From assembly GCA_037200545.1 (NCBI GenBank), contig JBBCGE010000003.1, forward strand, positions 6,750 through 70,749: a stretch of 64,000 nucleotides of DNA, written 5' to 3'. The stretch comes from Limisphaerales bacterium (GTDB lineage Bacteria; Verrucomicrobiota; Verrucomicrobiia; Limisphaerales; UBA11358). Under the pieces are notes generated by a model, which searched no databases, was not told the origin of the DNA, and saw only the letters and a list, made by a program, of their open reading frames with translations. Shown here piece by piece: positions 14,073-64,000 of this stretch (positions within the stretch are counted from its first letter, which is position 1; each line of letters starts with the position of its first letter). A program made the translations under genes and the position numbers.

Positions 14073-14118
14073 TACCTCCGGTTCATCATACATATGGTTT
14101 TAATCATGGGAAATTATT

Positions 14119-18171: not shown

Positions 18172-18386
18172 AGTTTTCACTTCCAACGCATGGGCACGCG
18201 CTGATCCGTTGCGAATTTTCAACACAATCCATCCTGCCGGTTCCATTAATTTGTCTGTCATCCGGATAATTTCAATTGTGAAGAAGTCACCATTGACAGA
18301 ACGTAGCGTCGTCGGTTACAAACGGCGCAAGGTTGTATCTGGGATTTTTTGATTCACAAGTTGTACGTCGGTGGCCGCTGAAACTT

Positions 18387-30251: not shown

Positions 30252-30254
30252 CTT

Positions 30255-31364: not shown

Positions 31365-31419
31365 ATTAAATTCAAATTTGGTTGCTAACCAAGAACACCA
31401 GTTCCCGATAACACATTGA

Positions 31420-32927: not shown

Positions 32928-32937
32928 AAATGTTAAA

Positions 32938-33384
32938 ATGATGAAAACAAGACACTTTGTTTACTATATTTCCAGCTTGGCAATAATTTTTTCAGGGTGT
33001 GTGTGCCAGCATCCTATGGAAAAAGAGACTCCCATGGAGAAGGAGTTTCTAAGAAAAGAACTCTCAGGTGATTTACGGCAAATTCTAGTCAGTGAGGCCG
33101 AGATTCAAAAATTGTCGAATGAGGGGAATTGCCTGATGATCTACGGCCTTCACATAAACGAAAAAAAATATTGGCGCAATCTGTCAGTAGGAACTGGTAA
33201 ACAATTAGAAGATGTTCTAAATTATTATGGAAATAGTGCTTTTGTTTGGGATTCTGCTTTAATCGTGGCGAAAAAAGATATGATTTTGCGGAGGCCAGAT
33301 TGGCACGAACGCGTGAGTACAAACTTCAATAAAGTAATAATAACTCCGGCGATATACTTCGGTTTTTTCCACTCGAATAAATGA
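32938..33384 (+). CDS. putative immunity lipoprotein for the Rhs HExxH tip
   Basis: An ATG ATG start lies at 32938, 11 nt after the toxin stop. The lipobox-like signal is MMKTRHFVYYISSLAIIFSGC. The sequence is visibly AT-rich and matches no family I recognise. The upstream part of the track ORF (32599-32937) is out-of-frame overlap with the toxin. Confidence 0.55.
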   Translation: MMKTRHFVYYISSLAIIFSGCVCQHPMEKETPMEKEFLRKELSGDLRQILVSEAEIQKLSNEGNCLMIYGLHINEKKYWRNLSVGTGKQLEDVLNYYGNSAFVWDSALIVAKKDMILRRPDWHERVSTNFNKVIITPAIYFGFFHSNK

Positions 33385-33556
33385 CGCAGCCAATAATCGC
33401 TTTGCGTTTTTCTTTCCTTTCCGTGAATTCAATGTTCAAACAAACGTGACCGTTTGGCTTCACTAAGGGCACAATGAGTTTCGCTTGCCATTCCACGCAA
33501 GTTGAGAATGGAATGCCTTTTAGTGAGCGAATTTCTGAAATGAATTTTGAATGTCC

Positions 33557-33600
33557 GCAAAAAAGCGGCCTCCGTTTCCAGAGGCCGCTTGGCGTTTTTT
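33557..33600. terminator. bidirectional Rho-independent terminator
   Basis: The stem is aagcggcctc (33563-33572) paired with gaggccgctt (33581-33590), with an 8-nt loop. A-rich sequence lies 5' and a T-run 3' on both strands. It sits between convergent genes. Confidence 0.8.
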
Positions 33601-34320
33601 AGAACTTTATTTTAATCCGGCGATGTTGCCGGAGCAGGGCCGGTGCCGGAGGCGTAGTCGTGGTCGGCGGCGTTGTGGCGGTCACCTTCTGACGTGCCGT
33701 GCGTTCGATGTGCGCGGCGGTCAACCAAGCCGCCATCTTCGCCGGCTGGCTGCCATATTTATTGTGCATGATGGCATCCAGCGTGGTCAGCGCTTTCATG
33801 CCCTGCGCAATCAACTGTCCAATGGTGGTGGTCGCGCCCACGCCGGTTTCGCGGGTGTTTTCTACTTGGGCCTGTGTGGTCATCACCGCGTTGCGATCAT
33901 TTTGCAGCAGCGTCACAAAATTCGCGCCCATTTCGTGCGCGGTGAATTTCGCCACCAGTGTCGGTTGTCCTGTGAGTTGTTGCAGGAACTTGTCAGCGGT
34001 GGTCAGGATCACCGCTTCGTTGGTGTTCACCGGCGGCCGGAAGCTGTCGGCAAAGCCCGGCTGGGTCTGGGCAATGGCGGTCGCGGTGCGGGTGATGTTT
34101 TTGGATGTCCAAGCGCACGGCATCCAGCAGGACTTCCTTGCTGGTGTTCTTGCCGGGCTTTTGGATCGCCTTCGCCGCATCCAATCCCGTGAATCACGGA
34201 GCTGATGGTGGCGAAGTTGGTGGCGGCGATGCTGCCGGCGGTAAAGTCGGCAGCGTAGGTGGTCCCGAATGTTTTGACGCGTTGAAAAGCGTCGTATCTG
34301 CGTGTTTCCCTGTCGTCCAT
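33599..34320 (-). CDS. hypothetical helical protein with Thr/Pro-rich C-terminus (two frame breaks)
   Basis: The ATG at 34320 is preceded by AAGGA. The three track fragments (34027..34416, 33993..34184, 33599..34180) join as MDDRETRRYDAFQRVKTFG...VIHGIG|LDAAKAIQKPGKNTSKEVLLDAVRLDIQ|NITRTATAIAQTQPGF... I recognise no family. Confidence 0.5.
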
Positions 34321-43300: not shown

Positions 43301-44276
43301 GTTCACTGCGGAGAAACCCGGATAAGTGGGAGATTGCGGACCAGGCGAACCGGCGATGGCGGGCGCGAGGTAAATTCCGTCGCCTGCACTGCCCAACGTG
43401 CCCAAGTTCGGTGCTGGCGGAGTAGGCGGCGCTTGATAACGGTCATAAAGTACCGGAGAACTTGCCAACACGGTTGAAGCATAAGTGGCCGGTGCTGTGG
43501 TGGCTGCCGCATAGTGGGCAGCTATGGTGCCAGCGGAAAGAGCGGTGGGATACAAGGCAGGCTCGGCTACGTTGCCGGGCCAGGGGAAATTAAGCGAACT
43601 GCGGATGCCAACTGTGAACGGCGCATCCGTAGTCGGCACATAAGTGGATTCCAGATGCATCATTGGTGCTTTGGCAAAACACACCATTGGTATAAATCTT
43701 GAGGCTTGTGCCGTCAAAAGTTACGGCAAGATATGTCCAGCCGGGAGTGACCGGTGCCGCCACGGTGAACAAAGGGTTGGCCGCATTTTGATTGAACGTA
43801 CGGAATACCCAGGCCGAGCCTAAAGCAAAGGTGCTTCCGTCGTCTTGAGCAAAATACCACCCGGAACGGGGGGAATTAAGCTGGGCGGAGGAAGACATGT
43901 AGGCAAACTTGGGAATTGTTGCCGGATTGACCCAGATTTCATAGGTGAACGTAGCTGTATTAAGCCCGGCTGTAACCGGGGTATTGATGTATTGCGACGT
44001 GCCATCCAGACCAATCGAGACACTGCCCGAAAACGGCCCCGGCGCATTGAGAGTGGGCAAAGCAACAAAGGTTCCATTGGCGGCGGCACCGAGCGAGCCG
44101 GAGTTGGTCGCCCCGCCATTGGGCTGCGGTGACAAGGTTCCATCCAACCGATAAAAACCGGACGGATTCTGCGACAGCACAGTGGACTGATAGTCTGCGC
44201 GTGCTGTCAATGTGGCGGACAGGGCCAGCAGCAAAGTGCTGCCGAGCCGGACGACGTTTTTATGGATTGGTTTCAT
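40331..44276 (-). CDS. secreted LamG (concanavalin A-like lectin) / Ig-like multidomain protein, about 1,314 aa, one frame break
   Basis: The signal peptide is MKPIHKNVVRLGSTLLLALSATLTARA. Several Laminin_G_3-like units end with IDEVAIW / VDEVAFY / LDDIGMW motifs, and Ig-like repeats are present (YQWFSN.., YQWKTNG.., LQWKKNG..). The fragments 43590..44276 and 40331..43717 join as ..GTSLKIYTNGV|LAKAPMMHLESTYVP.. at the run 43676-43679. Confidence 0.8.
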
Positions 44277-44415
44277 ATCGGGTCTGTTTCTTTGTTACTT
44301 TTCTTAGTTTTTAGGTTGCACTATATTGTCTGTAAATTAACCGGTTTGACCGGCCGACGGTTCAGAATGAAGATTTTGTATCGCGTTGATGGCATTAAAA
44401 CATTAAGCGGTGTTA

Positions 44416-45360
44416 TTATTTGGCGCGCGTTGAATGGTCTTGGATCCAATAAACGTCGTCGTTATTTTGCCCGTACGAACTAGTGTCGATGCCCTCAGAA
44501 GTAAAAGTTTTTCCGGGAGGTAAAAGATTCGGCGTGGTCTTACCATTCAACCATTTGTGAATCTCGGAATGGCCATCGGAAAATGAAAAACCAGCCGCCC
44601 GATTATGATACATGCCGGGCATGTCGCCCAAAGTCCATTGAGCCTTGCTATAAGGATCATAGCCGGTCATGTCCTGCATGAAATTGCTCCAGTTGACCGA
44701 GTCTTCACGCATGTCTAAAAACACAAACATGCTGGACGGGGAAACAACACTTGAAAGCTTTGAAAATATCCGGTATTTATCAGCAAAGGCCCAGCCACCG
44801 GCCCAGCCTAAAACAGTCCCACTGTTCGGTTGCGGAGCGAAACCACCCATATACAAGTTCATGGACATGGTTAAAATACGAGGGACGGGATTATTAGCTA
44901 AATTCGAAACCATGGAGGTGTCGGAAGGGCATTTGTAAAGTTTTTGAGACTTGGTATAAGCCCACAATGGTCTCTTTTGCATGTCATATGTCACATCGTA
45001 ATTGGCTAGATTCCCGCTGCTATAATCCATGTGAGCACCAGACCAGGCAAAGTCGTCTGGTTTATTTCCTCCTACTGACACAGGAACACTTCCGCCCGAA
45101 CGCCCGCCACCGCCAAGAGTGCTCGCATAAACCAAGGTGTCATTATTATCCTCCGCATACATGCGCCACGCCAAGGCGAGCTGTTTGTGCTGGTTCATGC
45201 ACACTATGCCCTGTGCTTTTTGTTTGGCTTTAGTGAGGGCCGGGAGAAGCATTGCCGCCAAAATCGCAATGATGGCAATAACCACCAACAATTCAATCAG
45301 AGTAAAGCCTGACATTGTGGTTTTAGTCTGATAAATTATCCTTGATTCATTTCGCAACAT
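44416..45360 (-). CDS. prepilin-type N-terminal cleavage/methylation domain protein (DUF1559-like)
   Basis: [25 protein letters not shown] is the class III signal, and the C-terminus has a FSFSDGHSE motif. The start is uncertain: ATG at 45393, 45360 or 45315. Confidence 0.8.
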
Positions 45361-45917
45361 GTTTTCACCCGCCTTGTTTTTTTTCATATGCATAATTTAA
45401 AATTAACAATCACACCTTGGTTCGGTGTAACACTGCTGTAACGCTCCTTTAACGAGATTGTTTTTAACACAGATGCGCATCGCTGTCCACAAATTTTTAA
45501 AAATGGACAAACCCAATACAGTCATTGATTGACCCCTTTGAGATGAAAATCAAGTTCGTTTTTATTACCGGGATCAGAATTGCTGGCGAGGGCTCTGTCA
45601 ACTTCATAACAAATGGCTGATATAAAACAGGATGTAGTAGAGCTTTTCGTGGGTGAATTGCAAAAATTGTCGTTTTAAAATTCAGTTGCGGGCGATGCAA
45701 CACCGGACGTTCTAAAGAAAAATTAGTTTATTTTTTGCCGACATATACCGACATACTTTGAATGCAGCGCGAAAATTCTTGTCGCGTTCAAAACTCTTTT
45801 GGGGAAGGAGCAATTTCAAATGACGATTGAACATTTATCTTGAAGAAAATTGGAAAGCCGAATTGACATGCCCGCTGCCATTCCGCTAGCTTCTTCCGGC
45901 AAAGAACCCGCGCTTTG

Positions 45918-50674: not shown

Positions 50675-50751
50675 TCTTTTCCTCGTGATAGTGCCTTGCG
50701 CCTTGGTTAAAGGAAAGATACGAATCAGCGGAAACGCTACACTGGCCGAAG

Positions 50752-52433
50752 TTAGATTTGTTCACGCTTCTTGCGACGAAAGATTTTGGCAAACAGCAAA
50801 CCGGTCATAACCACTCCACATGCCCACCCAAACCAGTCGCCATGACGATTGTAAAATGTCGGAGCCGGTTTTTCATCGGGCATAGGCAGGTCAAACGCCA
50901 GCGCGCCGACGCCATAAATGCCGCCGGTTGCATCTTTAAAAACCTGCCGCACTGCACCATGTGCATCTATCCAGCAGGTCACACCATTGTTGCAGGCGCG
51001 GACAAGCGGGACGCCATTCTCCACCGCGCGAAAGACTCCGGAGGCGGCCTGCTGCCATTGTTCCGCGCCTTCGCCGAACCAGCCGTCGTTGGTCAGGTTC
51101 ACCAGAAAATCCGTGTCGCTGTTGACGGACTCCCGCGCGGTTTGCGGAAACATGTCTTCAAAGCAGATCAACGGCGAAATGTTTATCATATTATGAAGCG
51201 AAGTTCTTTCCAGACCATTATTCAATTCAATGACCGGTTCAGGCGGACGGCGGTTCCAGTCGTGAATTGCAAAAGTCGCCGGCTTGTCACCCGCTTCAAA
51301 ACCTCCCTGAATAGGGGTGAACCATTTTACGAAAGGCAACCAGCGCACGAGCGGAATATATTCGCCGAATATGACCAGGTTGCGCTTCCGATAAACGCCG
51401 GCAAAAGTCCCATCCGGTGCGAGCAAAAACGCGCTGTTAAAATAAATGCTTTTCTGCGAGTCGGGTTGCCACACGGCTTCATCGGCGTTGAAAATCATCC
51501 ACAGATGGTGTGTGCAGACAAGGTTTGTGATGGCGGTATAGCTGGCTTCGTCAAATTCCGGCAGAGCGGCTTCGGGCCAGATGAGCAAATCTGTGCGGTT
51601 TGTCAGCGCTCTTTCTGTGAGCGCAATTAATTCTTGGAAACGATTCGAATTTGCGCCTGAATCCCAAATCATGTTTTGCGGCACGCTCGGCTGAATCAGC
51701 GTGATACGCAATGGGCGGCTGGGAAGTGTTCGTCTTGACTTCTAATCGCATTTGCACGCTGCCATAGGCGAACAGAAGCGCCACGACCAGCAGCGGTAGA
51801 AAAATCTCCGGCTGCCAGGCGAAGCGCGAACTGGGTTTTGAAAAAATGGCGCGCACTGCCGAGAACATCGCCAGCGAAACCCACACGACCAGGAATGAAA
51901 CGCCATAGACATCCGTGACCGAGGCGATCTGGATTAGTGGCGTGAGCTGATATTGCGATGTGCCGAGCAGATTCCACGGAAAGCGCCGAGAAAATGGGAG
52001 CGAAAGATTTCCAGGCCCACCCAAACCGCTGCGCCGGCCAGCGACCAAAGGTTGCGTTGCGTCCAAGTCCCGACGCCAATTTTCCCGGAAAGCAGCCAGG
52101 TCCAGGCTCCAAAATAAATCGCCATGAACGCGCTCAATGCAATCCAGCCGAGAACCGGAAAGCCCGCCACCGGAATCAACAGCAGCCAGCAGAGCGATGC
52201 CAGCCAGAACGAAATTCCGGCAACGTAGCCGACGCGAAAAGCATCACCAGATTTTTTTGCCTGTGCCGCAAAAGAATCAAGGCTGGCGCGATCCAGGCGA
52301 AACCGGCGATGCCGATATTTGGAAACGCCGCCGCCAGCAATAGTCCGGCGACGATTGCCAGCAAATAGCCGCTGCGGATGAACAGTTCGTTCAGAACACT
52401 CTTGGGAATCGCGAAGGGCGAATAACCATCCAT
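50752..52433 (-). CDS. lnt: apolipoprotein N-acyltransferase, three frame breaks
   Basis: The C-terminal CN-hydrolase domain is intact (LLIWPEAALP..., PLICFEDMFP, LVNLTNDGWFG). The N-terminal TM region is spread over the track ORFs 52176..52433, 51934..52707 and 51551..52066. It joins as ..PALIL|FAAQAKKSGDAF.., ..SHFLG|GFPWNLLGTSQYQ.. and ..SQPPIA|LRITLIQPSVPQ.. Confidence 0.8.
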
Positions 52434-52471
52434 GAAGGTCGGGCCGAGCCGGGTGCATTGTGCGGCCTGCT

Positions 52472-52990
52472 TCAGGACCGCCGACTGGCATTGACCACGA
52501 TGGCCTCGCGCGAGCCGCGCCAGACGGCGAAATCGGCGGTGGAATTTCCGGCATAATCAAAACCGCGCGCGCCGAATTTTTCCGTGAGCGCCCCCAGTTT
52601 GTTCTCACTGCGCAAATTCGTTTTGCCGTCGCTGCCGAGAACTTCATCGAAAAGTCCGATATGGCTGGCGACAGGCAATGCCATTTGGCGATCAGATGCA
52701 GTGGCAAGAATGAGTTTCCTCCCGGCAGATTTTTGCTCGCGAAGAAATATCAGGAATTTTTCATGATAGGGCAGGGTGGCGGGATCAACGGTGACACGCC
52801 GGGCCAGTTGCTTTTTCAGGAAGGCGCGTCCCCGTATCCACCAAAATAAAATTTGAAAAATCCAGAACGGATTTCGGCGGAGCAGTCGCGCCAGATGCTC
52901 CCACATCATGTCCGTTCTGATCAGCGTGCCGTCCAGGTCCACGGCGAGCGGGACTTGATTTGCGGGCAGCACTTCAGGGATTGGCGACAT
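52472..52990 (-). CDS. HAD-superfamily (subfamily IB-like) hydrolase
   Basis: Motif I is LAVDLDGTLIRTD, and LILATASD and a later GNSTAD motif follow. 172 aa. Confidence 0.7.
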   Translation of the reverse strand: MSPIPEVLPANQVPLAVDLDGTLIRTDMMWEHLARLLRRNPFWIFQILFWWIRGRAFLKKQLARRVTVDPATLPYHEKFLIFLREQKSAGRKLILATASDRQMALPVASHIGLFDEVLGSDGKTNLRSENKLGALTEKFGARGFDYAGNSTADFAVWRGSREAIVVNASRRS

Positions 52991-52998
52991 GGCTTTGA

Positions 52999-53640
52999 TT
53001 AGCCGTTGAGGGCGCGTTGGAGCAAGTTTTTTTCATGTTCGTCGTAAGGCAGCTTCAATGCCTCGGTGCGCGCGGCTTCAGTCATCTTGTCCCAGCTTTT
53101 CTGAAGCGCATTGATGGTTTTATCCTCGGCAGTCTTGACGGCGAGATCGGCGAATTGAAACTGGAGAAATACCAAGCAGAGCGCGTCTTCGAGTGTCCGA
53201 GTATCAGCATCAGCGGGGAAATTTTTCTTTAGGTTCAAGTCCTGGACGCGGCGGATGGTTTCCTCGTCGTAGCCAACTTCCTGAAGAATCGCGCCGGATT
53301 TCCCGGCATGAAATTTTTTAAGATCAGCACGCCATTTTAAATATCCGGGCCGGGTCATGGGATAATTTTCGCGCGGGCTTTCCCAGCGGCAGATGTGCTG
53401 GCAGCGCGCAGCGAGGCGCCGTAAAACCCAGTCAGTCAGTCGTTGCGCATAAAGCAATTCTCGAGGATAGGAAATATCATCAACAGTTTCATGGTTTGGA
53501 TCGCGGGAATTCTCCTCATCGAACCGGCGCAAGGCGGCCTCAAATTTCTTCGGGTCGTGTGGTTGGAAAGTCTCTGGCACGGCGGCAGTTTTGCGGAAGC
53601 GCGCCCAAGCGCAAGGCGGATTTACTTCACCGTAAAGCAA
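52999..53640 (-). CDS. DUF4202 domain protein
   Basis: YPRELLYAQRLTDWV...AARCQHICRWESPRENYPMTRPGYLKWRADLKKFHA...TLEDALCLVFLQFQF matches my recollection of the DUF4202 pattern. Confidence 0.6.
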   Translation of the reverse strand: MLYGEVNPPCAWARFRKTAAVPETFQPHDPKKFEAALRRFDEENSRDPNHETVDDISYPRELLYAQRLTDWVLRRLAARCQHICRWESPRENYPMTRPGYLKWRADLKKFHAGKSGAILQEVGYDEETIRRVQDLNLKKNFPADADTRTLEDALCLVFLQFQFADLAVKTAEDKTINALQKSWDKMTEAARTEALKLPYDEHEKNLLQRALNG

Positions 53641-54184: not shown

Positions 54185-56146
54185 ATGCAACCAATTCACC
54201 TCGCTTGGATAGATTACACCATTCTCCTGGCTTACGTCGCTTTCGTTATTGGCATCGGCTGGACGCTGGCACGCTACATGAAAACGTCATCGGACTTTCT
54301 CACGTCGGCGCGTTCGATTCCGACCTGGGTGACGGGACTTGCTTTCATCTCGGCAAATCTCGGAGCGTTGGAACTTGTCGGCATGGCCGCCAGCGGCGCG
54401 AAATACGGCATCAGCACGGCGCCACTTTTACTGGGTCGGCGCGATTCCGGCGATGATTTTTCTGGCCGTGTTCATGATGCCATTTTATTACGGCTCGAAA
54501 GCCCGCTCGGTTCCTGAATACTTGAAAATGCGTTTTGATGAACGTGTTCGTGCTTTGAACTCAGTCGCTTTCGCGGTCATGACGATTTTCGCCTCTGGCA
54601 TTTCGATGAACGCGCTGGCGAAACTTCTGAATTCACTGCTCGGCTGGAATTATCACGTCGCACTCTGGATCTCTTCCGGCGTTGTGTTGCTTTACGTTTT
54701 GAAGGGTGGTTTGACCTCGGCGATCTACACTGAAGTGCTGCAATTCTTCATGATCGTTCTCGGTTTCGCGCCCGTCGTTTATCTCGGCTTGAAAGATGTC
54801 GGCGGCTGGGGTGCGATGAATCATTCGCTTCAAGGCGTGGCCGTTGATCCTTCAGCTTATTATCTCAAAGATCCGGGCATCACTTTTGCTCCCGATGCTT
54901 GGACAAGTGCATGGAAACCGGTGTTGGCCGGTGCAACGCATAATCCCATGGGCGTGGACTGGTTCGCGATGATCTTCGGTCTCGGGTTCGTTCTCTCGTT
55001 CGGTTACTGGTGCACCAACTTCCTCGTCGTGCAACGCGCCATGGCGGCAAAGAACATGACCGCCGCGCGCAACACACCGCTGGTTGCCGCCGTGCCGAAA
55101 ATGTTCTTTCCATTCCTGGTCATCGTGCCCGGCATGATCGCCATCGCGTTGACCGCGATACCGAGCAAAGATTATCGCATTCCGCCGCCGATTGTTTCCG
55201 ACGCAAACTATACCAAGGCGATTGATGCGGTAAAGGCCGCCAGTCCGGCGGATTCCGCCGCAGGTGTTAAAGCCGTGGGCGAAGCGCTGGGTAAAAAAAT
55301 TGCCGATGATAAAATCGCTTCGCTCATTGCCGCCAATGCTGTGAGCAAGTTATCTGACGAACAGATCAAGCAGGGACTTTACAACAGCATTGCTGAAAAC
55401 GATTACGACCAGGTCATTCTTTCGCTGGTTAAAAGATATTGCCCTGCCGGCCTGTTAGGCTTGGCGTTGACGGCTTTGCTGGCCTCGTTCATGTCCGGCA
55501 TGGCGGGCAACGTCACGGCGTTCAACACCGTCTTCACCTACGATCTTTACCAGGCCTATTTTGCGAAGAACAAAAGTGACAATCACTATTCTGGATGGGT
55601 AAATTCATCACCGTCGTGGGCATTGTTTTGAGCATTGCCGCCGCGTATTTCGCTTCGATGTTTTATAACGCAATGGATGTCATCCAGCTTGTGTTCGGTT
55701 TCGTAAACGCGCCATTGTTCGCCACGTTCCTGCTCGGCATGTTCTGGAAGCGTACCACCGGCACTGGCGCATTTATCGGGTTGTTTGGAGGAATCGCCAG
55801 TTCGGCCCTGTTCCACGCATTGACCACCGTGCCTAGTAACTTGGATGCTAATGGCCACATCATCAGTGTTTTCAAAGGTGGTTACATCAAGGTTGTTGAG
55901 AAATTCCAAAGCGAAATGGCGCAAAATTTCTGGCTCGCCGCCTTTGCATTCATTACTTGCTTCACTTTGACTTTGGTGATTTCGCTGGCGACCGCCCGCA
56001 CCAAGTCGGATGTGGAGTTGAAAGGCCTGGTGTATTCACTAACGCCGAAAATCAAGTCGGACAATCTGCCATTCTACATGCAGCCGGGCGTGGTGGGCGT
56101 GGCCTTGTTGATTGTCTGTGTCGTCCTTAACATCATTTTCTGGTAA
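54185..56146 (+). CDS. sodium:solute symporter family transporter (SGLT-like), two frame breaks
   Basis: The fragments 54185..54517, 54339..55631 and 55595..56146 join as ..GAKYGIST|AHFYWVGAIPAMIF.. and ..KNKSDNHY|L.MGKFITVVGIVLS.. The TM pattern is typical of SSS transporters, and the gene lies next to galK. Confidence 0.85.
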
Positions 56147-56175
56147 ACCCGGATTATTTCAACCAAACTAAATTT

Positions 56176-56379
56176 ATGGGACTCGATATCCGCTGGCCGA
56201 TTGGCCTCATGTTCACACTCATCGGCGTGTTGCTGGCCATCTATGGCGCAGTTGACCGTTCCGGCTCGCTCTCGCTCGGCATTAACATAAATCTCATTTG
56301 GGGCATCGTTCTGCTCGCGTTCGGCGTGTTGATGCTCGCAGGTGCGGTGCGTGGTGGTAAAAACCCGCCTTCAGCCTAA
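56176..56379 (+). CDS. small two-TM membrane protein
   Basis: 67 aa (MGLDIRWPIGLMFTLIGVLLAIYGAV...IWGIVLLAFGVLMLAGAV). It lies 29 nt after the transporter stop. Confidence 0.5.
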   Translation: MGLDIRWPIGLMFTLIGVLLAIYGAVDRSGSLSLGININLIWGIVLLAFGVLMLAGAVRGGKNPPSA

Positions 56380-56397
56380 CCATTCAACTTCAATGGC

Positions 56398-56423
56398 CGG
56401 GGAACCCTGGTTGCCCGTTTTTT
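56398..56423 (+). terminator. Rho-independent terminator-like hairpin
   Basis: The hairpin is cggggaacc/ggttgcccg (one G-G mismatch, 56398-56417), followed by T6 (56418-56423). It ends only 7 nt before the galK ATG. Confidence 0.5.
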
Positions 56424-56429
56424 ATTCTC

Positions 56430-57607
56430 ATGACCAGCCTGCAAAAACTCGCAGCAGAAACTGCCCAGCAATTTGCCAAAACCTACGGGCGCCCGCCGCG
56501 CTGGATCGTCGCCGCTCCCGGACGTGTCAATGTGATCGGCGAACACACCGATTACAATGACGGCTTCGTCCTGCCAATGGCCATCGAACATTACGCCGTC
56601 ATGGCCGCCGACCGTTCGGCCGATGGTAAGAGTATTTTTCAAATTCGTGACGCTTCCGGTGCCGAACCATTGTCGGTTGATTTGTCCACGACCATCACGA
56701 CGGGTCTGCCGAAGTGGGGCAATTATCCGCGCGGCGTCATCGCCGGCTTTCTGGCGCGCGGCATGAATCCCGGCGGCCTTGACGTGTTATTGCATTCCAC
56801 CGTGCCATTGGGCGGCGGTTTGAGCAGCAGTGCCGCACTGGAAGTCGCCACGGCGACCCTGATTGAAACCGTGACCGGGAAAAAAAATTGATCCGGTTGA
56901 AAAGGCGCTGCTTTGCCAGAAGGCGGAAAATGATTTCGCCGGCGTGCCGTGCGGGATCATGGATCAATTCATCTCCGTGATGGGCCGGCAGAACCATCTG
57001 CTGCTGCTTGACTGCCGTTCGCGCAAGACCGAGCTGGTGCCGATGAGCGACGCCGCCGTTTCGTTGATGATCATCAACACGAACGTCAAACATGAACTGA
57101 CCGGCGGCGGTTATGCCCAGCGCCGCATCCAATGTGAAATGGCCGCGAAGATTCTCGGCGTTCCGGCCTTGCGCGATGCGACGGCGGAAATGTTGGAATC
57201 TGCCAGGGATAAAATGGACGAAGCCGTTTTCCGCCGTGCACGCCATGTCATCGGCGAGATCGAGCGCACCGTCCATGCGGCCGAGGGCGTGCGCGCCTCG
57301 AATTGGCCTACGGTTGGCCAGCTCATGTATGCGAGCCATGCATCGTTACGCGATGATTATGAAGTGAGCTGTCAGGAACTTGACGTGGTGGTCGAGATCG
57401 CGGAGGACATCAGTTTCAAGGGCGGGGATTTATGGCTGCCGCATGACCGGCGGCGGCTTTGGCGGCTGCGCCGTGGCCTTGGTGAAAACCGAACTGGTTG
57501 AAGCCATTTCCGAACGGATCGCCGCCGACTACAAAAAGAAGACCAAGATTGAAGCGACCATCTTTGTTTCCCGCCCGGCGGCCGGCGCCACGGTCATCAA
57601 GGCTTGA
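56430..57607 (+). CDS. galK: galactokinase, two frame breaks
   Basis: GRVNVIGEHTDYNDGFVLPMA is the galactokinase signature, PLGGGLSSSAALEVA the GHMP motif, and MTGGGFGGC is also present. The breaks are at the A8 run 56880-56887 (..TGKK|IDPVEKALLCQKAENDFAGVPCGIMDQF) and the G4 run 57424-57427 (..KGG|IYGCRMTGGGFGGC). Confidence 0.9.
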
Positions 57608-57896
57608 ATTTTTTTAGCCGAGTCCCCTGGGCCATCATCAAAGCCCGGGCAATGATGATGGCTAAAACGCCAGCCCAAAAAACTGTCCCGACCGCCGCGC
57701 AGACCACGCCCCAAATCCGGTAGGGCCGTGCCGCATTCCAAAATAATTTTTCTTTGGCACGAACCCGTCCTGATATCCACAGCGCCGAAAGCGCAAAGGG
57801 GAATCCAATAACCGGGATCAAACCCAGCAGTCCGAAAACAAGACAGCGGCTTGAGCCGGTGAGCATTTTGATTTTAGCGTTCGCGTCCTGATTCAT
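57597..57896 (-). CDS. small membrane protein, last gene of the pseudopilus-like operon
   Basis: 99 aa with two or three TM helices. Its ATG forms an ATGA overlap with the upstream gene's stop. Confidence 0.5.
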   Translation of the reverse strand: MNQDANAKIKMLTGSSRCLVFGLLGLIPVIGFPFALSALWISGRVRAKEKLFWNAARPYRIWGVVCAAVGTVFWAGVLAIIIARALMMAQGTRLKKFKP

Positions 57897-58093
57897 GGGG
57901 AAAGTGATCCGAAAATGGTCACGCTGTTCGTTTGCGATGCGTTCAAACGTTTGATTTGCTGTTGCTCCAGAAACCTCACCTCGCGGCGCAGGTGAAGCAG
58001 CGCACGACTTTCCGCAGTGACGAGGATCATCATTATCGCCAGCAACGCCATGAAGACAACGGTTGCTGAACCGCTTTCATTTTGCGCCAGCAT
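57893..58093 (-). CDS. small pseudopilin-like protein (GspK-like N-terminus)
   Basis: I prefer the ATG at 58093 (MLAQNESGSATVVFMALLAIMMILVTAESRALL...). It has a hydrophobic N-terminal helix and no other recognisable domain. Confidence 0.4.
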   Translation of the reverse strand: MLAQNESGSATVVFMALLAIMMILVTAESRALLHLRREVRFLEQQQIKRLNASQTNSVTIFGSLSP

Positions 58094-58140
58094 TTGGCGG
58101 TTGCCGCTGTCCTGCCGGATGTAATGCCTGAGTTGGATTT

Positions 58141-58644
58141 TCACGGTTTTGGTTGCACCGCCTCGAAGGTGAACAGCAGTGGTAAATGGGTTTCTGAGCG
58201 GCGTTGCGTCAATTCCAATTCCCAACGCCACGCGCTGACAGTGTCGCGTACTTCGGCTTTCATGTATGATGTTTTGACTTTTGGCAGCAGCAATTGTGAA
58301 TTGTTCAAGCCGGAGATCTCACGCCGCACACCGCCGGATTCAAAGCGATAGAAAATGTCCTTCTCCTTGCCGGGAATCCGTACAATTTCCCCCTCCAGCG
58401 TTGACTCGACGGAAATGGTCCGCGTTGCGGCGCGCACGTCCGCCCGCCAGCGTTCGCCGGCGCGCAGGGCGGAGGCGATGTCATCCGTCGCCATGATCAC
58501 CGCCTTCGAATGGTCCCAGCAGAAATAAAAAACCGCCGTGCCGATGCCGAGCAGGATGACGAACACGGCGACATAGACGAGGCATTCTGTGAGCAAAATG
58601 CCCGCCTGACGTTGCCGTCGTGAAATATTTTTTCGCACGTTCAT
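58141..58644 (-). CDS. pseudopilin-like protein
   Basis: The ATG at 58644 overlaps the upstream stop as ATGA. In MNVRKNISRRQRQAG|ILLTECLVYVAVFVILLGIG, Gly precedes the hydrophobic helix and Glu sits at +5, as in class III signals. Confidence 0.55.
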   Translation of the reverse strand: MNVRKNISRRQRQAGILLTECLVYVAVFVILLGIGTAVFYFCWDHSKAVIMATDDIASALRAGERWRADVRAATRTISVESTLEGEIVRIPGKEKDIFYRFESGGVRREISGLNNSQLLLPKVKTSYMKAEVRDTVSAWRWELELTQRRSETHLPLLFTFEAVQPKP

Positions 58645-59031
58645 TTGACGGTGGTTTCGCGAATGACGGCACCTATGCCGCGTTTCTCGTCCGAGTTCCA
58701 TTCTAGCTGCACGCGGTTGCCGATTTTGGTCAGTTGAAAATGGCCTGCTGGCAGATGGGCGGCAGCCCGGCTTTGGACGGGATAAGTTTGCACTCCGTCG
58801 GGAAAAGTTTTCCAATATCCAGCGGCGAGGATTTCCATTTCGCCATCAACGATTTCGCTGACGACGCTGCGATAGTATTCGATCTTGAGAACCTGCCTTT
58901 CGTGGGCAAAGGAAAAATCCAAGCGGAATGATGGCCAGCGACAGGATTGCCAGGCCCACCAGTAAATCCACTTCCAAAATGCCGCGCTGGGAATGGCGGC
59001 TGCCGAGTAGTTGTGATGATTGTATTTTCAT
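58641..59031 (-). CDS. pseudopilin-like protein, one frame break
   Basis: The ATG at 59031 overlaps the GspF-2 stop as ATGA. The N-terminus is MKIQSSQLLGSRHSQRG|ILEVDLLVGLAILSLAII. The fragments 58846..59031 and 58641..58922 join at the run 58914-58918 (..IPLGF|SFAHERQVLKIEYY..). Confidence 0.5.
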
Positions 59032-60237
59032 TCAGATGCCATTCCGTTTAAAACTGCCATCAGGATGCCGAACATGGCCGTAGCAATCAGCGCCACCAGC
59101 AGACCGTTCAAAATCACAAGTCCGCTCGTAATGGTATGCGCCGCCGCTTCCTCCTGTTGGAACGCCTTGGCATCCAGCGCCTGATGCCAGCCATGCAACG
59201 CATTTAAAAACCACCGCGTGCGTGGATCGCATTGGTCAAGCGCCAGCGGAATTCACCGTGGTCATCGAAGGCGTGAACGGCAACATCCAGTTTTGCACCT
59301 TGTTCCATCGCGGGCAATGACGTGCTGCGAACGCTGGCGGCAGATTTGATTAGCCGTGCAATCTCCCGCAAGCCTGACGGCCTCAGTTTCCGCCACGCCA
59401 CTGTCAAGCAAAACGGCGAGCATGGCGGAAAATTGTCCTTTGCAGCCGCTTTTGCTTCCATGGCACGTGCCAGGCAATCCAATCGACGACGGGCAGTCCG
59501 CGAAATTGAAACCAACGGACAAACCCCGGTCCGCCGATATAGAGCAAAGTAGCCAGCAGCATCATTATGGTGATGATCAACTCGGAAGCGATCAGCCAGC
59601 TGGTATGGGTAAAGACAAATTGCGCCATGAGCGGGAGATGAATGCCCATTCCGGCAGCGACTTCTTTGAATTTGGGAATGACGAAGACCATGGTCATCGT
59701 CACCACAAAAATGAAGACCGGTGAGAAAAGTAAAACGACGAAGATCAGATAATGCATGGCGCTCCGAACAGCGGCTGGGCGGTCCAGTAATAGTTCGCGG
59801 CAGGCCGGCAGCACTTTTTTCGGGTCGCCAAGTTTTTCACCTGCCCGGAGGATGGCGCTGATTTGTGGAGGTAAAAAGCGCGGAACCTTTTCCAAGGCGT
59901 CGCCAAATCTTGACCCGCCTTCGACATAGGCTGCCAGCAGATGAAAACGCATACCGATGGTGCGGTCGCGGCTGCTGGCCAGGGAAAGGATCATCTCTTC
60001 AACCGCCTGGCCGCGATTGAGCGCGCTCACAACCAAGTCAAGAAACAACCGTGCGCGTTCCATGCGACGCATCGGCAGTGAGAAAAAAAAGTGAATCAGA
60101 AAAACAAATGCGGCGATGGCGGCCAGCCAAAGGCCGAAGATTAGGGAGCTTTCAAAGAATTTCAATATTGCGGGTAAAATCGATGATCGAAAGCCATTAT
60201 CTACATCAAATAAATAGCCATCGTCAATCTGACCCAA
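59028..60237 (-). CDS. GspF/PilC-family platform protein, second paralog (three frame breaks)
   Basis: Two T2SSF-like halves are present: RARLFLDLVVSALNRGQAVEEMILSLAS...ISAILRAGEKLGD, and FSAMLAVLLDSGVAETEAVRLAG...GGFLNALHGWHQALDAKAFQQE, ending in a TM helix (LVILNGLLVALIATAMFGILMAV). The start is uncertain (TTG at 60237). Confidence 0.65.
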
Positions 60238-60266
60238 TCAGTGATGAAATTTTTGCACTCATCTGT

Positions 60267-61269
60267 TTATTCCATAGAGCCACCGATGGATTGAAGAAAT
60301 CCGGTCAATGCCACGAACACAGGTGAAATTTGCGATGCTATCATGATTGCCAGCGTGAGGATTGAACAAGGCAACACCGAATACAGTAGCATTTCGATGC
60401 GGTAGAGAGCGCGTGCCTGATATAATTCCGCCGCCCGCTGAAAGCCAGCGGTCAAATCTTCACCCGCCTGCGCAACCGTCCAGATGAACAGCGGCGGAAA
60501 CACGCTGCGACGTGATCCATCAGACGCAATCGTCAGGTCCGCAAATTTTCCTTGGCCGGAAGCCAGACGCTTCCGCCATTCGATGATTTCTTTTTCGGCA
60601 AGCGTTCCTTTTCAAGCTGCTCGGTGAGAGCCAGCGCATCATCAAGCGGAACATTATTCTTCAACATCAGCCACATGGCGGAAGCGACCTCTGCGAGACT
60701 GGCTTCACGAAAAGCGGGCAGTCGCCCATCTTAATTTCCGTCGTGCTGGGGAAACGCAGATGGCAACCAGTGCTGCGGCCAACGCCAGGCCGATAAAAAC
60801 CGGTGACATCCACAGGCCTGCAGATACAACCGGAAGCATGTGATTGCCGACGAGCGATTGCAGATTGTTCCAAATAAACGTGCTTAGAATGAAAGCGAGA
60901 AAGCCTGAAATCAAAAATGCCAAAACCAAAACGATGACCGGATAAACCATCAATCCTTTTAAACGTGTCCAGATGTTATTCTGCCGGTGAAAATAATCCG
61001 CGAGCATTATCAGCGCACCTGGCAGGTCGCCGCTTTTGACGCCGACCAGAATCATGCGTTTATACAGTTCGGGAAGCTGACGCGGCTGTAACGCGTCAGT
61101 CATCGGGCGTGCCCTTAGCAAAATCGGCTTCTAGTGACTGCAATTCCGTGCGCAACGTGCTATCGCGCATCTCCTGGCAAAGCCTGCGTATAGCGCCTTC
61201 AAGCGGGATGCCATCACGCAACATTGCCGCCAATTGCTGGTTGAAAAAGGCAAATTCGTCGTCTTTCAT
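60267..61269 (-). CDS. GspF/PilC-family platform protein, first paralog (three frame breaks)
   Basis: The ATG at 61269 overlaps the gspE stop as ATGA. The N-terminus is MKDDEFAFFNQQLAAMLRDGIPLEGAIRRLCQEM..., followed by ..VGVKSGDLPGAL.. The second half reads ASAMWLMLKNNVPLDDALAL...LFIWTVAQAGEDLTAGFQRAAELY. Confidence 0.7.
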
Positions 61270-62369
61270 AAGCCAAAACCCCGTTTATATTCCGCTTCAT
61301 TGGTCACACCCTGGTTCACCAGCGAACGTGCGGACGTCTCAAGTGTCTGCAAGGGTGTTATCGCCGATAATTCGCGCCGCCGGATTTGTTCGCGCAAGGA
61401 TTCGTTCACTTGCAGCCATTCGACCAGCGGCAGACGGCCTTGATAACCTGTATGCAGGCAAGTTTCGCAGCCAGCACCCTCGCACGGGCGACAAACCTTG
61501 CGTACGAGACGCTGGTTCAAAACGAGTTGAACTGCGCTGGCGACGGCTGAATGGTCGGTGCACATGGCAAGCAGGCGTTCGAAAACGCCCCGACACGAGC
61601 CGGCATGCAACGTGGAGATTACAAGATGGCCGGTCAGTCCGGCGCGGACCGCCAGCTGGGCGGTGGCTTCATCACGGATTTCGCCAAGAATGAGAATTTG
61701 CGGGTCTTGTCGTAGCAGATGCCGGGCGGCACGGGCAAAATCGAGTCCGATGGCTTCATTGATTTCGGTTTGCATGGTGCCGGGAACGATCTGTTCAACC
61801 GGGTCTTCGACAGTGATGATGTGGCGTCCACCAAGTTCAGCCAGATGACGCAAACAGGCATAAATCGTCGTGGTCTTGCCGCTGCCAGCCGGGCCGGTCA
61901 GTAAAAGCAGGCCGCTCGTCTGGCGTAAAAAAGTTTCGAGTTGCGCACGAGCGTTTTCGGGAAATTCAATTTCATCCAGCGTTTTGACCACGGTGGAGTT
62001 GAACAGCCGCAGGACGATTTTTTCGCCGGTCACAGTTGGGTAAGTCGAGACACGGATGTCGTTTCGCCCTTTGAGTTCTTCATGGTCAATACGGCCGTCC
62101 TGTGGCAATGATTCCTGATACGTTTTCAGGCGTGCCAGGAATTTGATACGGCCAAAAACGCGCTCGGCGATTTCAGCAGGCAGTTCGCGTCCTGGCGTGA
62201 TGATGCCGTCCAGCCGAAAACCAATCTCGGCTGATTTTCCGCGCATCTGCAAATGGATGTCGCTGGCACCAGCGCGCTCGGCCATGTGGATGAGATTTTC
62301 CAGGACCTGCGGCGCCGAGGCTTCGGAATCATTTCTGTTTTCGACCGTTGTTATTTTTTCTTGCGGCAT
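61266..62369 (-). CDS. gspE: GspE/PilB-family type II/IV secretion ATPase (short form)
   Basis: Walker A is LLLTGPAGSGKTTT. The Asp box and Walker B are QDPQILILGEIRD, and the His box is GHLVISTLHA. A tetracysteine cluster reads CRPCEGAGCETC. There is no long N1/N2 extension. Confidence 0.9.
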   Translation of the reverse strand: MPQEKITTVENRNDSEASAPQVLENLIHMAERAGASDIHLQMRGKSAEIGFRLDGIITPGRELPAEIAERVFGRIKFLARLKTYQESLPQDGRIDHEELKGRNDIRVSTYPTVTGEKIVLRLFNSTVVKTLDEIEFPENARAQLETFLRQTSGLLLLTGPAGSGKTTTIYACLRHLAELGGRHIITVEDPVEQIVPGTMQTEINEAIGLDFARAARHLLRQDPQILILGEIRDEATAQLAVRAGLTGHLVISTLHAGSCRGVFERLLAMCTDHSAVASAVQLVLNQRLVRKVCRPCEGAGCETCLHTGYQGRLPLVEWLQVNESLREQIRRRELSAITPLQTLETSARSLVNQGVTNEAEYKRGFGL

Positions 62370-62373
62370 GGGT

Positions 62374-62724
62374 CTATTCCTTTTCGGCGATCAAGTGATG
62401 CATCCCGTGTTCGTCCTGCATGAAGACATGCAGCTTGGTTTCAAACTGTGCGAATTGGTTGCGGAAATGTTTTTCGTTTTTTGAGAGGGCAACGGCCGCG
62501 ATTTTGAGCGGCTTGAACTGGGCGCACCAGATTCCCAAAATCAAGACCAACGCAAAACCGCCGGCCCAGGCAAGACGGGGCAGCCAGAAGCTATTGGGCG
62601 CTGGTCGCATGGCGGCGCGGTGCAGGTTCAAGCGCACCTGCGCTGGGAAATTCTCCCAATAATCCTCGGGACGTTCGGGCAGGGGAACGTCTTTTAGTTT
62701 TGATTCGAGATCAAAGTCATTCAT
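62374..62724 (-). CDS. single-pass membrane protein, putative anti-sigma factor
   Basis: The ATG at 62724 follows GGAGG and overlaps the sigma stop by 8 nt. It has one TM helix (LAWAGGFALVLILGIW). The function is inferred from position only. Confidence 0.45.
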   Translation of the reverse strand: MNDFDLESKLKDVPLPERPEDYWENFPAQVRLNLHRAAMRPAPNSFWLPRLAWAGGFALVLILGIWCAQFKPLKIAAVALSKNEKHFRNQFAQFETKLHVFMQDEHGMHHLIAEKE

Positions 62725-63271
62725 GCGCACCTCCAATAGTGGTAAGCCAGCCTTTTAATTTCCTCCGCGCGGCGAATACGCGCCAGGAAACGGTGGTTTC
62801 CGAACAACCCAAAATCTTTGCGGCCTCGGCGTGATTCAGACCATCATAAATTGTCAGTACGATTGCAGCGCGTTGTTTGGCAGGCAATTTTAGCAATGCG
62901 GACTGGACCTGTTCACACGCCCCGTTTTTTGCGGCAGCGTTCGTCTCATTGTTTTGCCGGCTGCAAAATTCATCGGCACATTCGGTTTGAAAGTGATATC
63001 GACGGGCCTCGCTTTGCTTCCAGTTCAAGCAGGTATTGATGGCGATGCGATAGAGCCAGGTGGAAAATTTCGCCGTGCTTCGGAACGAGCCGATCTGGTC
63101 GTAGGCGCGGATGAACGTCTCTTGTGCGAGATCCTCGGCGTCCGCCAAAGAACCGGTCATCCGAAATGTCAGCGAGTGAATCATGCATTGATGGTTGCGA
63201 ACCAGCGATTCAAAAGCCGTCGGGCTGCCATTTTGAGTTTGCAACACCAGTTCTGAGTCGGCGTCGGCCAT
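62717..63271 (-). CDS. ECF-type RNA polymerase sigma-70 family factor
   Basis: Region 2 reads FESLVRNHQCMIHSLTFRMTGSLADAEDLAQETFIRAY...FSTWLYRIAINTCLN. Region 4 reads LPAKQRAAIVLTIYDGLNHAEAAKILGCSETTVSWRVFAARRKL. The start is either 63271 or 63397. Confidence 0.85.
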   Translation of the reverse strand: MADADSELVLQTQNGSPTAFESLVRNHQCMIHSLTFRMTGSLADAEDLAQETFIRAYDQIGSFRSTAKFSTWLYRIAINTCLNWKQSEARRYHFQTECADEFCSRQNNETNAAAKNGACEQVQSALLKLPAKQRAAIVLTIYDGLNHAEAAKILGCSETTVSWRVFAARRKLKGWLTTIGGAHE

Positions 63272-63514
63272 GCGGCTTTCTTTTACTAACTTCGACAAAC
63301 GCGGAGACGAAATCCTTTGAATTATTTTTAGAGCATCATCTGGCGGGCCAGCCATGACCCGGCCGAGCGCTGAAACGGATGACATCTGCGAAGTCATGGG
63401 GAGGGAAATTCACCGGGCAGATGGCTGTTGTGCCGGTTCGTGCGACCTGATTGAAGGATGTCGGGCATGTCGCGGTAAAGCGACTCTACTCCTGCGAAAA
63501 CCGATTGCAAACCT

Positions 63515-63534
63515 TATCCGGCAGAAACCGGATA
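63515..63534 (-). terminator. weak hairpin after grpE
   Basis: The 7-bp stem is tatccgg/ccggata with a 6-nt loop. The downstream U-tract is poor. Confidence 0.3.
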
Positions 63535-63543
63535 ACAACGGAT

Positions 63544-64000
63544 TCAGCCGCCGGCTTTTTTGGCGACGATCACGGCGGAGGGGCGCAGCAGGCGCTCGCG
63601 GAATTTGTAGCCTTTGCGGATTTGCTGGAGCACCTGGCCTTCGGGCACCGTGTCGCTTTCTTGTTGCGAGACGGCTTCGTGAAAAGTCGGGTCAAATGGC
63701 TTGCCGCTGGCGTCCAATTCTTCCAAGCCGCTTTCGGCCAGCGCGCTCTTAAGCTGCTGCTGGATCATGGCAATCCCGGTTTGCAGGGAGGCGAGCTTGT
63801 CGCCCTGTGCACCTTGAGCGGCGGTCTGGGCCATTTCAAAATTATCGAGGATGGGTAGTAGTTTTTGGAGCAGGGAGGCGTTGGCAAATTGCGCGGCCTC
63901 GGTCTTTTCACGCGCGGCGCGCTTCTTGAAATTTTCAAAATCGGCGGTGACGCGCAGCAGGCGTTCCCAGTTTTCATCAGCCTTGGCGGCGCGGGACTGA
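63544..64000 (-). CDS. grpE: nucleotide exchange factor GrpE, C-terminal part (5' end outside window)
   Basis: The frame is open from 64000 down to the stop at 63544: ..ENWERLLRVTADFENFKKRAAREKTEAAQFANASLLQKLLPILDNFEMA...FDPTFHEAVSQQES...VLQQIRKGYKFRERLLRPSAVIVAKK. Confidence 0.9.
   Translation of the reverse strand, partial: QSRAAKADENWERLLRVTADFENFKKRAAREKTEAAQFANASLLQKLLPILDNFEMAQTAAQGAQGDKLASLQTGIAMIQQQLKSALAESGLEELDASGKPFDPTFHEAVSQQESDTVPEGQVLQQIRKGYKFRERLLRPSAVIVAKKAGG

Follow-up and report, generated by a model that had tools for sequence, protein, structure and literature searches.

A probable type IV filament assembly cassette with two GspF platform paralogs, conserved in Limisphaerales

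We describe a compact operon of nine co-directional genes on the minus strand (positions 57597-63397) of a 64,000-nt stretch of DNA from a Limisphaerales bacterium (GenBank assembly GCA_037200545.1, contig JBBCGE010000003.1). This whole stretch is called the window below, and its genes were called from an open reading frame (ORF) listing together with hidden Markov model (HMM) scans against Pfam and NCBIfam. The operon encodes an extracytoplasmic function (ECF) sigma factor and a small membrane partner, an ATPase of the GspE/PilB/ComGA clade, two full-length paralogs of the GspF platform protein, three small proteins that are likely, though not proven, to be pilin-like, and a final membrane protein. 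We favor, with moderate confidence, the reading that this is a functional and conserved type IV filament (T4F) assembly cassette that is specific to Verrucomicrobia subdivision 3 / Limisphaerales. From its sequence features it is best read as a widely conserved yet unstudied system that is new within the T4F superfamily.

The sigma factor gene (62717..63397; 226 aa) comes first and, like all of the genes that follow, lies on the minus strand. Next are a single-pass membrane protein that is a candidate anti-sigma factor (62374..62724; 116 aa), the extension ATPase (61266..62369; 367 aa, intact), the platform paralogs GspF-1 (60267..61269; ~331 aa, similar in size to ComGB) and GspF-2 (59028..60237; ~385 aa, with an extra hydrophobic N-terminal segment), the pilin-like proteins P5 (58641..59031; 129 aa), P6 (58141..58644; 167 aa, intact) and P7 (57893..58144; 83 aa, a transmembrane (TM) helix followed by a short amphipathic helix), and the conserved two-TM protein P8 (57597..57896; 99 aa). 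Both platform genes are frame-broken in the window, and the P5 gene has one break (see below). The P8 gene forms the 3' end of the operon and is convergent with a galactokinase gene. An initial annotation of this DNA, made from the sequence alone, had proposed these nine products in this order and had described them as packed with ATGA or few-nt junctions; all nine were found, and the window coordinates bear out the packing, since the junctions from sigma to P8 are an 8-nt overlap, a 4-nt gap, an ATGA, a single spacing of ~30 nt between gspF-1 and gspF-2, and four further ATGA overlaps. The -4 overlap is also the commonest junction across the relatives described below. The same annotation had placed the start of the sigma ORF at 63271; the true start is at 63397, and the 42 additional upstream codons are conserved as protein. 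The start codon of GspF-2 is uncertain, with a TTG at 60237 and homology that starts at ~60177. P8 was present in ~43 loci with invariant residues C18, G22, P28, G31 and N54, and gave no match in the Pfam and NCBIfam family scans; the idea that it is a prepilin peptidase was rejected, as it has just two TM segments and ~90 aa. An Rfam search of 57000-64000 returned no match.

Members of the T4F superfamily have an extension ATPase of the GspE/PilB/TadA family, a polytopic T2SSF platform, subunits with class III signal peptides and an A24 prepilin peptidase; of these, the operon clearly encodes the first two. The ATPase matches T2SSE (PF00437) at 309.5 bits and has the tetracysteine cluster that was attributed at the outset to a short GspE. 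Its NCBIfam scores are 318.5 bits for GspE, 295.9 for PilB, 239.7 for ComGA, 151 for PilT and 33 for a TadA-family model, all of which lie under the curated cut-offs, and among solved structures it matches PilF, EpsE and PilB at ~215 bits and PilT at ~99 bits. By these comparisons it is a member of the assembly clade GspE/PilB/ComGA and is neither a PilT nor a Tad ATPase. It has no N1 domain and aligns to positions 96-387 only of the GspE model (318 bits versus a cut-off of 630). Both CxxC pairs of the tetracysteine cluster are kept (CRPC-EGAG-CETC) with a 5-residue loop between them; the loop in solved PilF and EpsE chains is roughly 20-25 residues long, and the short form is also present in relatives L001, L003, L045 and L064 (L numbers designate related loci).

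A scan of one genome per species of the GTDB taxonomy returned 44 loci of this kind, nearly all of them in metagenome-assembled genomes (MAGs) of Verrucomicrobia subdivision 3, Limisphaerales or Verrucomicrobiia from soil, peat and freshwater. The nine-gene order and constant gene sizes recur in ~45 independent genomes or metagenome contigs, which is far above chance expectation. One ATPase homolog, from an NCBI Limisphaerales MAG, is 100% identical to that of the window and 119 others are 78-88% identical among the matches listed; metagenomic homologs with 80-90% identity number in the hundreds. Clustering at 50% identity divides the P6 family into 596 clusters. Conservation extends to the distant locus L064, where a seven-gene core of ATPase, two GspFs and four small genes is kept, and in the still more distant L045 (57% ATPase identity) just the ATPase-GspF-GspF trio is retained. 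Several of the record titles of L008, L011, L012, L017, L022, L026, L027, L031, L033 and L039 name unrelated taxa (Bifidobacteriaceae, Bifidobacterium, Methylomirabilota, Sulfotelmatobacter and Methylacidimicrobium fagopyrum); mislabelling of the records or mis-binning of the contigs is the probable cause.

The two GspF paralogs, which had been predicted at ~330 and ~400 aa, are both full-length platform proteins. In the intact L003 orthologs T2SSF (PF00482) matches two stretches of each paralog, and the window GspF fragments also match PF00482 and the GspF model. Intact GspF-1 orthologs are 325-341 aa long, and the L003 copy scores 129 bits on GspF and 77.9 bits on ComGB, end to end; intact GspF-2 orthologs are 375-390 aa long and more divergent (71 bits on GspF). 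Comparison among loci shows that these proteins exist in two sequence types. The window GspF-1 and GspF-2 are 55-61% identical to the L003-type orthologs and 64-72% identical to those of a second type, which we call B, found intact in ten loci (L008, L011, L021, L024, L027, L029, L034, L038, L046 and L049); across the two types amino-acid identity is ~55%. The window GspF-1 is of type B. Distance matrices of GspF-1 and GspF-2 correlate closely with one another (r=0.90), those of either GspF and the ATPase correlate at just 0.44-0.63, and the ATPase, P5 and P6 matrices intercorrelate at ~0.8. Sister taxa on the ATPase tree can carry different GspF types, and nucleotide identity between L011 and L003 is 87-93% over gspE and the first ~270 nt of gspF-1 and then falls to 41-60%. 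This sharp drop and the division of the types between sister taxa indicate that the platform module has repeatedly been exchanged by recombination. The stretch of GspF-1 that is closest to the ATPase gene (the first ~90 residues) has remained linked to the ATPase, while the rest appears to have been swapped between species, a pattern that would fit two platforms that have co-adapted as a heteromer but does not prove it. In the literature searched, "two platform proteins" are described for Tad or archaeal systems only, and TadB and TadC are single-motif halves that arose by gene fission (PMC10191384, PMC6668835).

Since the window copies of three of these genes are broken, the state of the operon in this organism has to be considered. 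Frameshift-aware protein-to-DNA alignment against intact orthologs found exactly seven frame breaks between 58914 and 61104, the number that the initial annotation had counted. All are single-base changes in minus-strand genes: three in gspF-1 at ~61104 (+1), ~60725 (+1) and ~60610 (-1), three in gspF-2 at ~59432 (+1), ~59312 (+1) and ~59208 (-1), and one in the P5 gene at ~58915. That annotation had allowed that the breaks might be real and the operon decayed, in which case GspF-1, GspF-2 and P5 would be pseudogenes here. Some observations speak for this: all seven breaks are crowded into 2.6 kb, yet another part of the window has a 10-kb ORF with no break at all, the window GspFs are merely 55-61% identical to the L003-type orthologs, and a metagenome scan with the window GspF-2 found no close relative (best identity 61-64%). 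The last of these at first pointed to decay and was later explained by the existence of two GspF types, and the intact type B members likewise account for the low GspF identity. Every break is the gain or loss of one base at a homopolymer of 3-5 nt, and the corrected ORFs have zero in-frame stops and no larger deletions. The closest relative, L063, which has 81% nucleotide identity, the same downstream synteny and a nanopore assembly, is in frame at all seven of the window break sites and carries different breaks of its own. Moreover, the same kind of damage affects the adjoining housekeeping stretch (54339-57607), where the window galactokinase gene (galK) is spread over three frames by single-base insertions at ~57427 and ~56876 (L063 galK is intact, at 398 aa) and the SSF symporter gene beside it is split into two overlapping ORFs. 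A broken galK and symporter beside the operon are typical of long-read homopolymer errors. Intact orthologs are the rule: none of the nine genes is broken in ~45 other genomes, which are for the most part short-read MAGs, and gene lengths there vary very little. On this evidence the window frame breaks are assembly errors and the notion of a decayed operon is refuted; we consider real decay extremely improbable. Break density in the window as a whole is very uneven: the 3360 aa ORF at 18333-28415 is unbroken, while 28445-34200 (GC ~46-47%) and 50750-53640 are made up of numerous short ORFs that overlap. This unevenness may stem from local coverage, a mixture of strains or real decay. A practical point is that frame breaks in long-read MAGs can look like gene decay.

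The three small proteins encoded after the platforms are the least conventional components. The initial annotation took them for divergent pilin-like proteins with degenerate class III signals, and the N-termini that it quoted are present exactly as given: QRG/ILEVD for P5 (the slash marks the putative cleavage site), QAG/ILLTE for P6 and ESG/SATVVF for P7. Alignments of 40-46 orthologs show that these signals are conserved. Almost all P6 orthologs have Gly(-1) and Glu(+5). Most P5 orthologs have Gly(-1) and nearly every one has Asp(+5), the distant L064 ortholog having Glu(+5) instead. In P7 the Gly ahead of the hydrophobic helix is invariant, there is no acidic residue at +5, and the short amphipathic helix comes next. 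The N-termini of the three proteins align in register with each other (hhalign E ~1e-4; E=6e-5 for P7 versus P6), and when P6 profiles were compared with the PDB only full-length solved pilins were matched (Shewanella PilA, geopilins and PilE1), with the N-termini in register at the cleavage site and at borderline E values of 0.017-0.06. Divergent members of the P6 family have N-termini that are textbook-like (QRGG/ATLIE, SSG/TTLIE, AQA/FTMVE), and one such member, P0493, matches the ComGF model over 118 of its 139 positions with E=3e-7. Of 42 close P6 orthologs, 13 give a weak match to ComGF and 8 to the generic prepilin domain TIGR02532 (best E 0.0026). P5 has a weak GspI/ComGE affinity, with GspI/XpsI touched by 4 of 46 members at E ~0.04, and P7 resembles GspK/ComGG at its N-terminus only, the L064 ortholog matching the GspK N-terminus at E=0.0035. 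These weak affinities, taken from the profile matches, run in the gene order GspI, ComGF/GspJ, GspK, and this I-J-K reading fits the published correspondence of I, J and K with ComGE, ComGF and ComGG and the published tip cap that has no Glu5 (PMC10191384). Membership in the Verru_Chthon pseudopilin cassette was rejected, as matches to it are sporadic and confined to the N-terminus.

Two results weigh against the pilin assignment. The window P5, P6 and P7 gave no usable matches in Pfam or NCBIfam, lying below the TIGR02532 and PF07963 cut-offs, and the family matches above come only from per-member scans and divergent relatives. In addition, AlphaFold2 models of P5 (helix 9-70 and four strands) and P6 (helix 9-71 and eight strands), both with a predicted local distance difference test score (pLDDT) of 85, found nothing significant when compared with the PDB by Foldseek. 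The layout of these models, a helix of ~62 residues and then a sheet, itself speaks for a pilin-like nature. The class III N-termini of the initial annotation thus stand as conserved features, and a pilin fold was not confirmed by the Foldseek search, which is why we grade the sequence- and model-based assignment as likely and not as proven.

Could these proteins be something else, or be arranged differently? P5, P6 and P7 might be bitopic assembly or alignment proteins that replace PilN, PilO, GspL, GspM or GspC, so that the operon would supply motor and scaffold and all pilins would come from elsewhere. Such an arrangement would explain the missing fold match to solved pilins and the pilin-family HMM matches that all fall under cut-off; the operon is otherwise without alignment proteins, an N-terminal TM segment with a long helix and a small domain also fits PilN and PilO, and the P6 profile gives a self-contained family (the 596 clusters above) that stays separate from the pilin superfamily. 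Nonetheless, the hydrophobic helix is directly preceded by a conserved Gly, and precisely five residues after this Gly comes an acidic one, in register among P5, P6 and P7 and with solved pilins, divergent members have G/xTLIE and the near full-length ComGF match, the last of the three proteins lacks Glu5 as do tip-capping minor pilins, and no PilN, PilO or GspM family was matched, so we regard a scaffold role as unlikely. A different arrangement is a self-contained minimal filament in which P5, encoded by the first pilin gene after the platforms, would be the major subunit and P6 and P7 would form the tip. P5 does sit where Com operons have their major pilin (the comGC position), its mature form of ~113 aa has the simplest layout (a helix and a four-stranded sheet), its distant ortholog has Glu5, and in the majority of loci no further pilin is encoded in cis. 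On the other hand, residue +5 is Asp and not Glu throughout Limisphaerales, the sole family affinity of P5 is to the minor pilin GspI, and mini-prepilins or H-X9-DG pseudopilins (below) adjoin the operon in ten relatives; we find this arrangement unlikely as well.

These last proteins bear on where a bulk subunit might come from. HMM scans of the nine genes agree with the initial annotation that the operon has no secretin, prepilin peptidase, GspC/L/M or GspG-like gene, and they also found no PilMNOP or PilT; none of these components lies within 10 kb of the operon in relatives with precomputed Pfam annotation. The further claim that there is no major subunit is true of the window operon itself, and has to be amended on two counts. 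A regular expression scan found a canonical prepilin-type protein 12 kb from the operon and outside it (44416..45393, minus strand; 325 aa, MSG/FTLIELLVV...), which scores 27.4 bits on N_methyl (cut-off 21.2), 28.9 bits on TIGR02532 (cut-off 16.3) and 36.9 bits on the GspG N-terminus. It shows that the genome makes class III signal proteins, its product is a possible subunit supplied in trans, and because of it a prepilin peptidase would be expected elsewhere in the genome. The prepilin gene is followed by those of two LamG-domain proteins of 228 aa and 1128 aa, the latter with Ig domains, and this region (40331-45393, minus strand) may be a separate pseudopilin-associated surface-protein cluster. 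In addition, six relatives have a canonical mini-prepilin of 44-48 aa in or beside the operon (for example, MKPRNWG/LSLIELLCVMAIISILVAMYVGVIGKAFLHVKKVLGH), either between gspE and gspF-1 (L023:~9449-9631 and L029:9083-9229) or just upstream of the sigma gene (L018:~6560-6700, L024:6693-6827, L027:6667-6801 and L055:2609-2743). All five that were scanned pass the TIGR02532 cut-off (22-33 bits versus 16.3), and the mature part of ~37 residues is essentially the alpha-1 helix alone. By its sequence the mini-prepilin is a possible bulk or major subunit; such a gene was not detectable in the window, and genes of this size are easily lost to ORF-length filters. Four other loci have H-X9-DG-type pseudopilin genes 0.7-2.5 kb downstream on the same strand. 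Proteins of this kind are abundant in genomes of the Planctomycetes-Verrucomicrobia-Chlamydiae (PVC) group, so their adjacency may be incidental.

The ECF sigma factor heads the operon in the window and in many relatives. It has regions 2 and 4 only (PF04542, 70.6 bits; PF08281, Sigma70_r4_2, 52.5 bits), the arrangement of ECF (group 4) factors, and scores 93.4 bits on TIGR02937 versus a cut-off of 42.9. Upstream of "MADAD" is the N-terminal extension of ~42 aa, which is conserved in ~35 orthologs and contains an invariant (K)IIQRI motif. The partner has a conserved N-terminus that is predicted to be cytoplasmic (MNDFxLESKLK..P.R..YW..FP), one TM segment, and a conserved C-terminal part of ~45 aa (with LMADEHGMHYL); it gave no Pfam or NCBIfam match and belongs to no recognized anti-sigma family in those scans. 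In 36 of 39 loci the two genes share 4-8 nt. The partner gene is followed by gspE at a distance of 20 nt or less in 28 of 38 loci, the distance in the window being 4 nt, and the partner is present wherever the sigma factor is and absent wherever it is not. Gene overlap, single-pass topology and strict co-occurrence make the partner a candidate anti-sigma factor. In these respects the pair is like autoregulated ECF sigma/anti-sigma operons, which have a region 2+4 sigma factor, an overlapping gene for a single-pass partner that strictly co-occurs with it, and candidate target genes directly downstream; it differs from them in that the partner has no ZAS or other Pfam anti-sigma domain and in the conserved N-terminal extension of the sigma factor.

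Nevertheless, the initial picture of an ECF-headed operon holds only in part for the family, as the pair is absent from 11 of 49 loci. On the ATPase tree the basal lineages L042, L064, L040 and L039 have no sigma pair, and in the main clade 37 loci have it and those without it are scattered. From this distribution we conclude that the ECF module is probably a frequent secondary addition that does not define the machine. In several loci without the pair the operon begins right after the gene that elsewhere precedes sigma, which encodes an AhpC/TSA (ResA-like) protein with a thioredoxin fold and CNHCP motif (for example, L003:8256-8831) and which in most relatives is conserved on the same strand directly upstream of sigma, or of gspE if there is no sigma gene. 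The window has a different gene at this position, GrpE-like judging by its translation. No ECF promoter was identified: a scan for sigma-70 promoters and terminators gave results at chance level, the region upstream of sigma that was aligned for this purpose turned out to be coding, and k-mer pair enrichment recovered just the 3' end of the AhpC-like gene. In the literature searched, nothing relevant was found that links an ECF sigma factor in cis to a type II secretion system (T2SS), T4F or pseudopilins, or Limisphaerales to pili, and no description of the present system was found.

How does the cassette compare with known systems? Its ATPase and platform place it in the T4F superfamily, and its gene content corresponds to none of the T2SS, Com, Tad or type IVa pilus. 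One of the systems closest to it is the Com pilus of Firmicutes (comGA-comGG), and the initial view that the layout is closer to Com-type operons than to a canonical T2SS is upheld by the ComGA-sized ATPase, the end-to-end alignment of GspF-1 with ComGB and the ComGF matches of the P6 family, which appears to be distant kin of ComGF. Both are compact single operons with an N1-less ATPase of ~360 aa, a platform of ~335 aa and a run of small pilin genes that ends in one without Glu5, and neither has secretin or PilMNO/GspCLM genes. The cassette differs in that its host is a diderm verrucomicrobium, and in having a second full-length platform, an ATPase that retains the tetracysteine cluster and, usually, an ECF module at its head; it has no ComGC or ComGD equivalents, just three pilin-like genes and that of a two-TM protein. 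If the cassette were a pseudopilus for DNA uptake, Com-like but fitted to a diderm cell, this would account for the size of the ATPase and its alignment with the whole ComGA model (240 bits), for a GspF-1 that spans the whole ComGB model, for ComGF as the best match of the P6 family, and for a core of seven genes as in comGA-GG. However, all scores are under the Com equivalog cut-offs (ComGA 239.7 versus 300, ComGB 77.9 versus 240, ComGF at most 30.7 versus 80), ComGC and ComGD equivalents are missing, no ComEA, ComEC or DprA gene lies nearby in the annotated loci, and the second platform and the ECF switch are foreign to Com; DNA uptake of this kind seems to us decidedly doubtful.

The T2SS (GspD-O, with a GspI-J-K tip) shares with the cassette an ATPase and platforms that score best on the GspE and GspF models and three pilin-like genes in I, J, K order, the last without Glu5. 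The cassette, in contrast, has no secretin, no GspC, L, M, G, H or O, no N1 domain in its ATPase and no evident link to a substrate, and its P7 is 73-83 aa long versus ~300 aa for GspK. The initial annotation had suggested an envelope-stress-induced machine that secretes the large exoproteins encoded nearby, and the window does encode such proteins: a giant putative surface or secreted protein (18333-28415, plus strand; 3360 aa) with M36 fungalysin protease, IgGFc-binding and Ig domains and PKD, cadherin and Big repeats, a second giant putative surface or secreted protein of the BspA-type leucine-rich-repeat (LRR) kind (9585-14093, minus strand; 1502 aa), and the LamG/Ig protein of 1128 aa. 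The best ATPase score, that on the GspE model, also fits a T2SS-like exporter. This suggestion nevertheless received no support, since M36 protease, BspA-LRR and LamG/Ig genes adjoin the operon in none of the relatives examined (L001, L002/L003, L004, L063, L064 and the P0012 contig). The N1 domain of GspE ATPases binds GspL, and the window ATPase has no N1, its GspE score is half of the curated cut-off, and the operon lacks secretin, GspC/L/M and GspG; we therefore judge export of these neighbors to be very improbable. Apart from Tad/Flp (type IVc) systems, which have TadB and TadC, no well-known bacterial T4F has two platform genes in one operon, and the very small pilins of Tad/Flp systems may be compared with the 44-48 aa mini-prepilins of the cassette's relatives. 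TadB and TadC, though, have one platform motif each where the cassette paralogs have two, the cassette ATPase is not TadA-like (33 bits versus ~300 on GspE/PilB), and there are no TadE/F/G/Z/V or RcpA genes; a Tad-like system was rejected on the basis of the unsuited ATPase and platform architecture. Finally, the cassette differs from type IVa pili in having no PilMNOPQ or PilT genes in the operon or annotated flanks, and in an ATPase that matches PilB at ~215 bits versus ~99 for PilT.

Under the assembly cassette reading that we favor, a hexameric GspE/PilB-type ATPase would drive a platform in which the two diverged, full-length GspF paralogs probably form a hetero-oligomer. A prepilin peptidase encoded elsewhere would cut P5, P6 and P7 after the conserved Gly, and the cleaved proteins would assemble, as I-J-K do, into the priming (tip) complex of a short pilus or endopilus, with P7, which has no acid at +5, capping the tip and P5 (Asp5) and P6 (Glu5) below the cap. 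The bulk subunit would come from elsewhere, as the mini-prepilin in some relatives and otherwise an H-X9-DG pseudopilin or possibly P5 itself, and any outer-membrane conduit would also be encoded elsewhere. In most lineages the cassette lies directly behind the ECF sigma gene and its partner and is probably co-transcribed with them, so that an extracytoplasmic signal might switch the filament on. Its output could be adhesion, secretion or DNA uptake. More tentatively, the cassette may constitute an unclassified branch of the bacterial T4F, marked by a GspE/PilB-clade ATPase, a heteromeric two-GspF platform, a reduced I-J-K-like set, a helix-only pilin of ~37 residues in some lineages, and a platform pair whose membrane/periplasmic part would be exchanged between species as two ancient allelic types.

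The cassette is abundant in uncultured Verrucomicrobia of soil, peat and freshwater, organisms whose surface structures have hardly been studied. It would be a near-minimal machine, as it has just three tiny pilin-like proteins and lacks an alignment complex. Models of T4F assembly now assume that there is one platform species, probably trimeric, with six cytoplasmic domains that correspond to the ATPase hexamer (PMC10191384). The platform:ATPase stoichiometry would be put to a direct test by a natural system with two diverged full-length platforms, which would also show which platform surfaces touch the ATPase and which touch the pilins.

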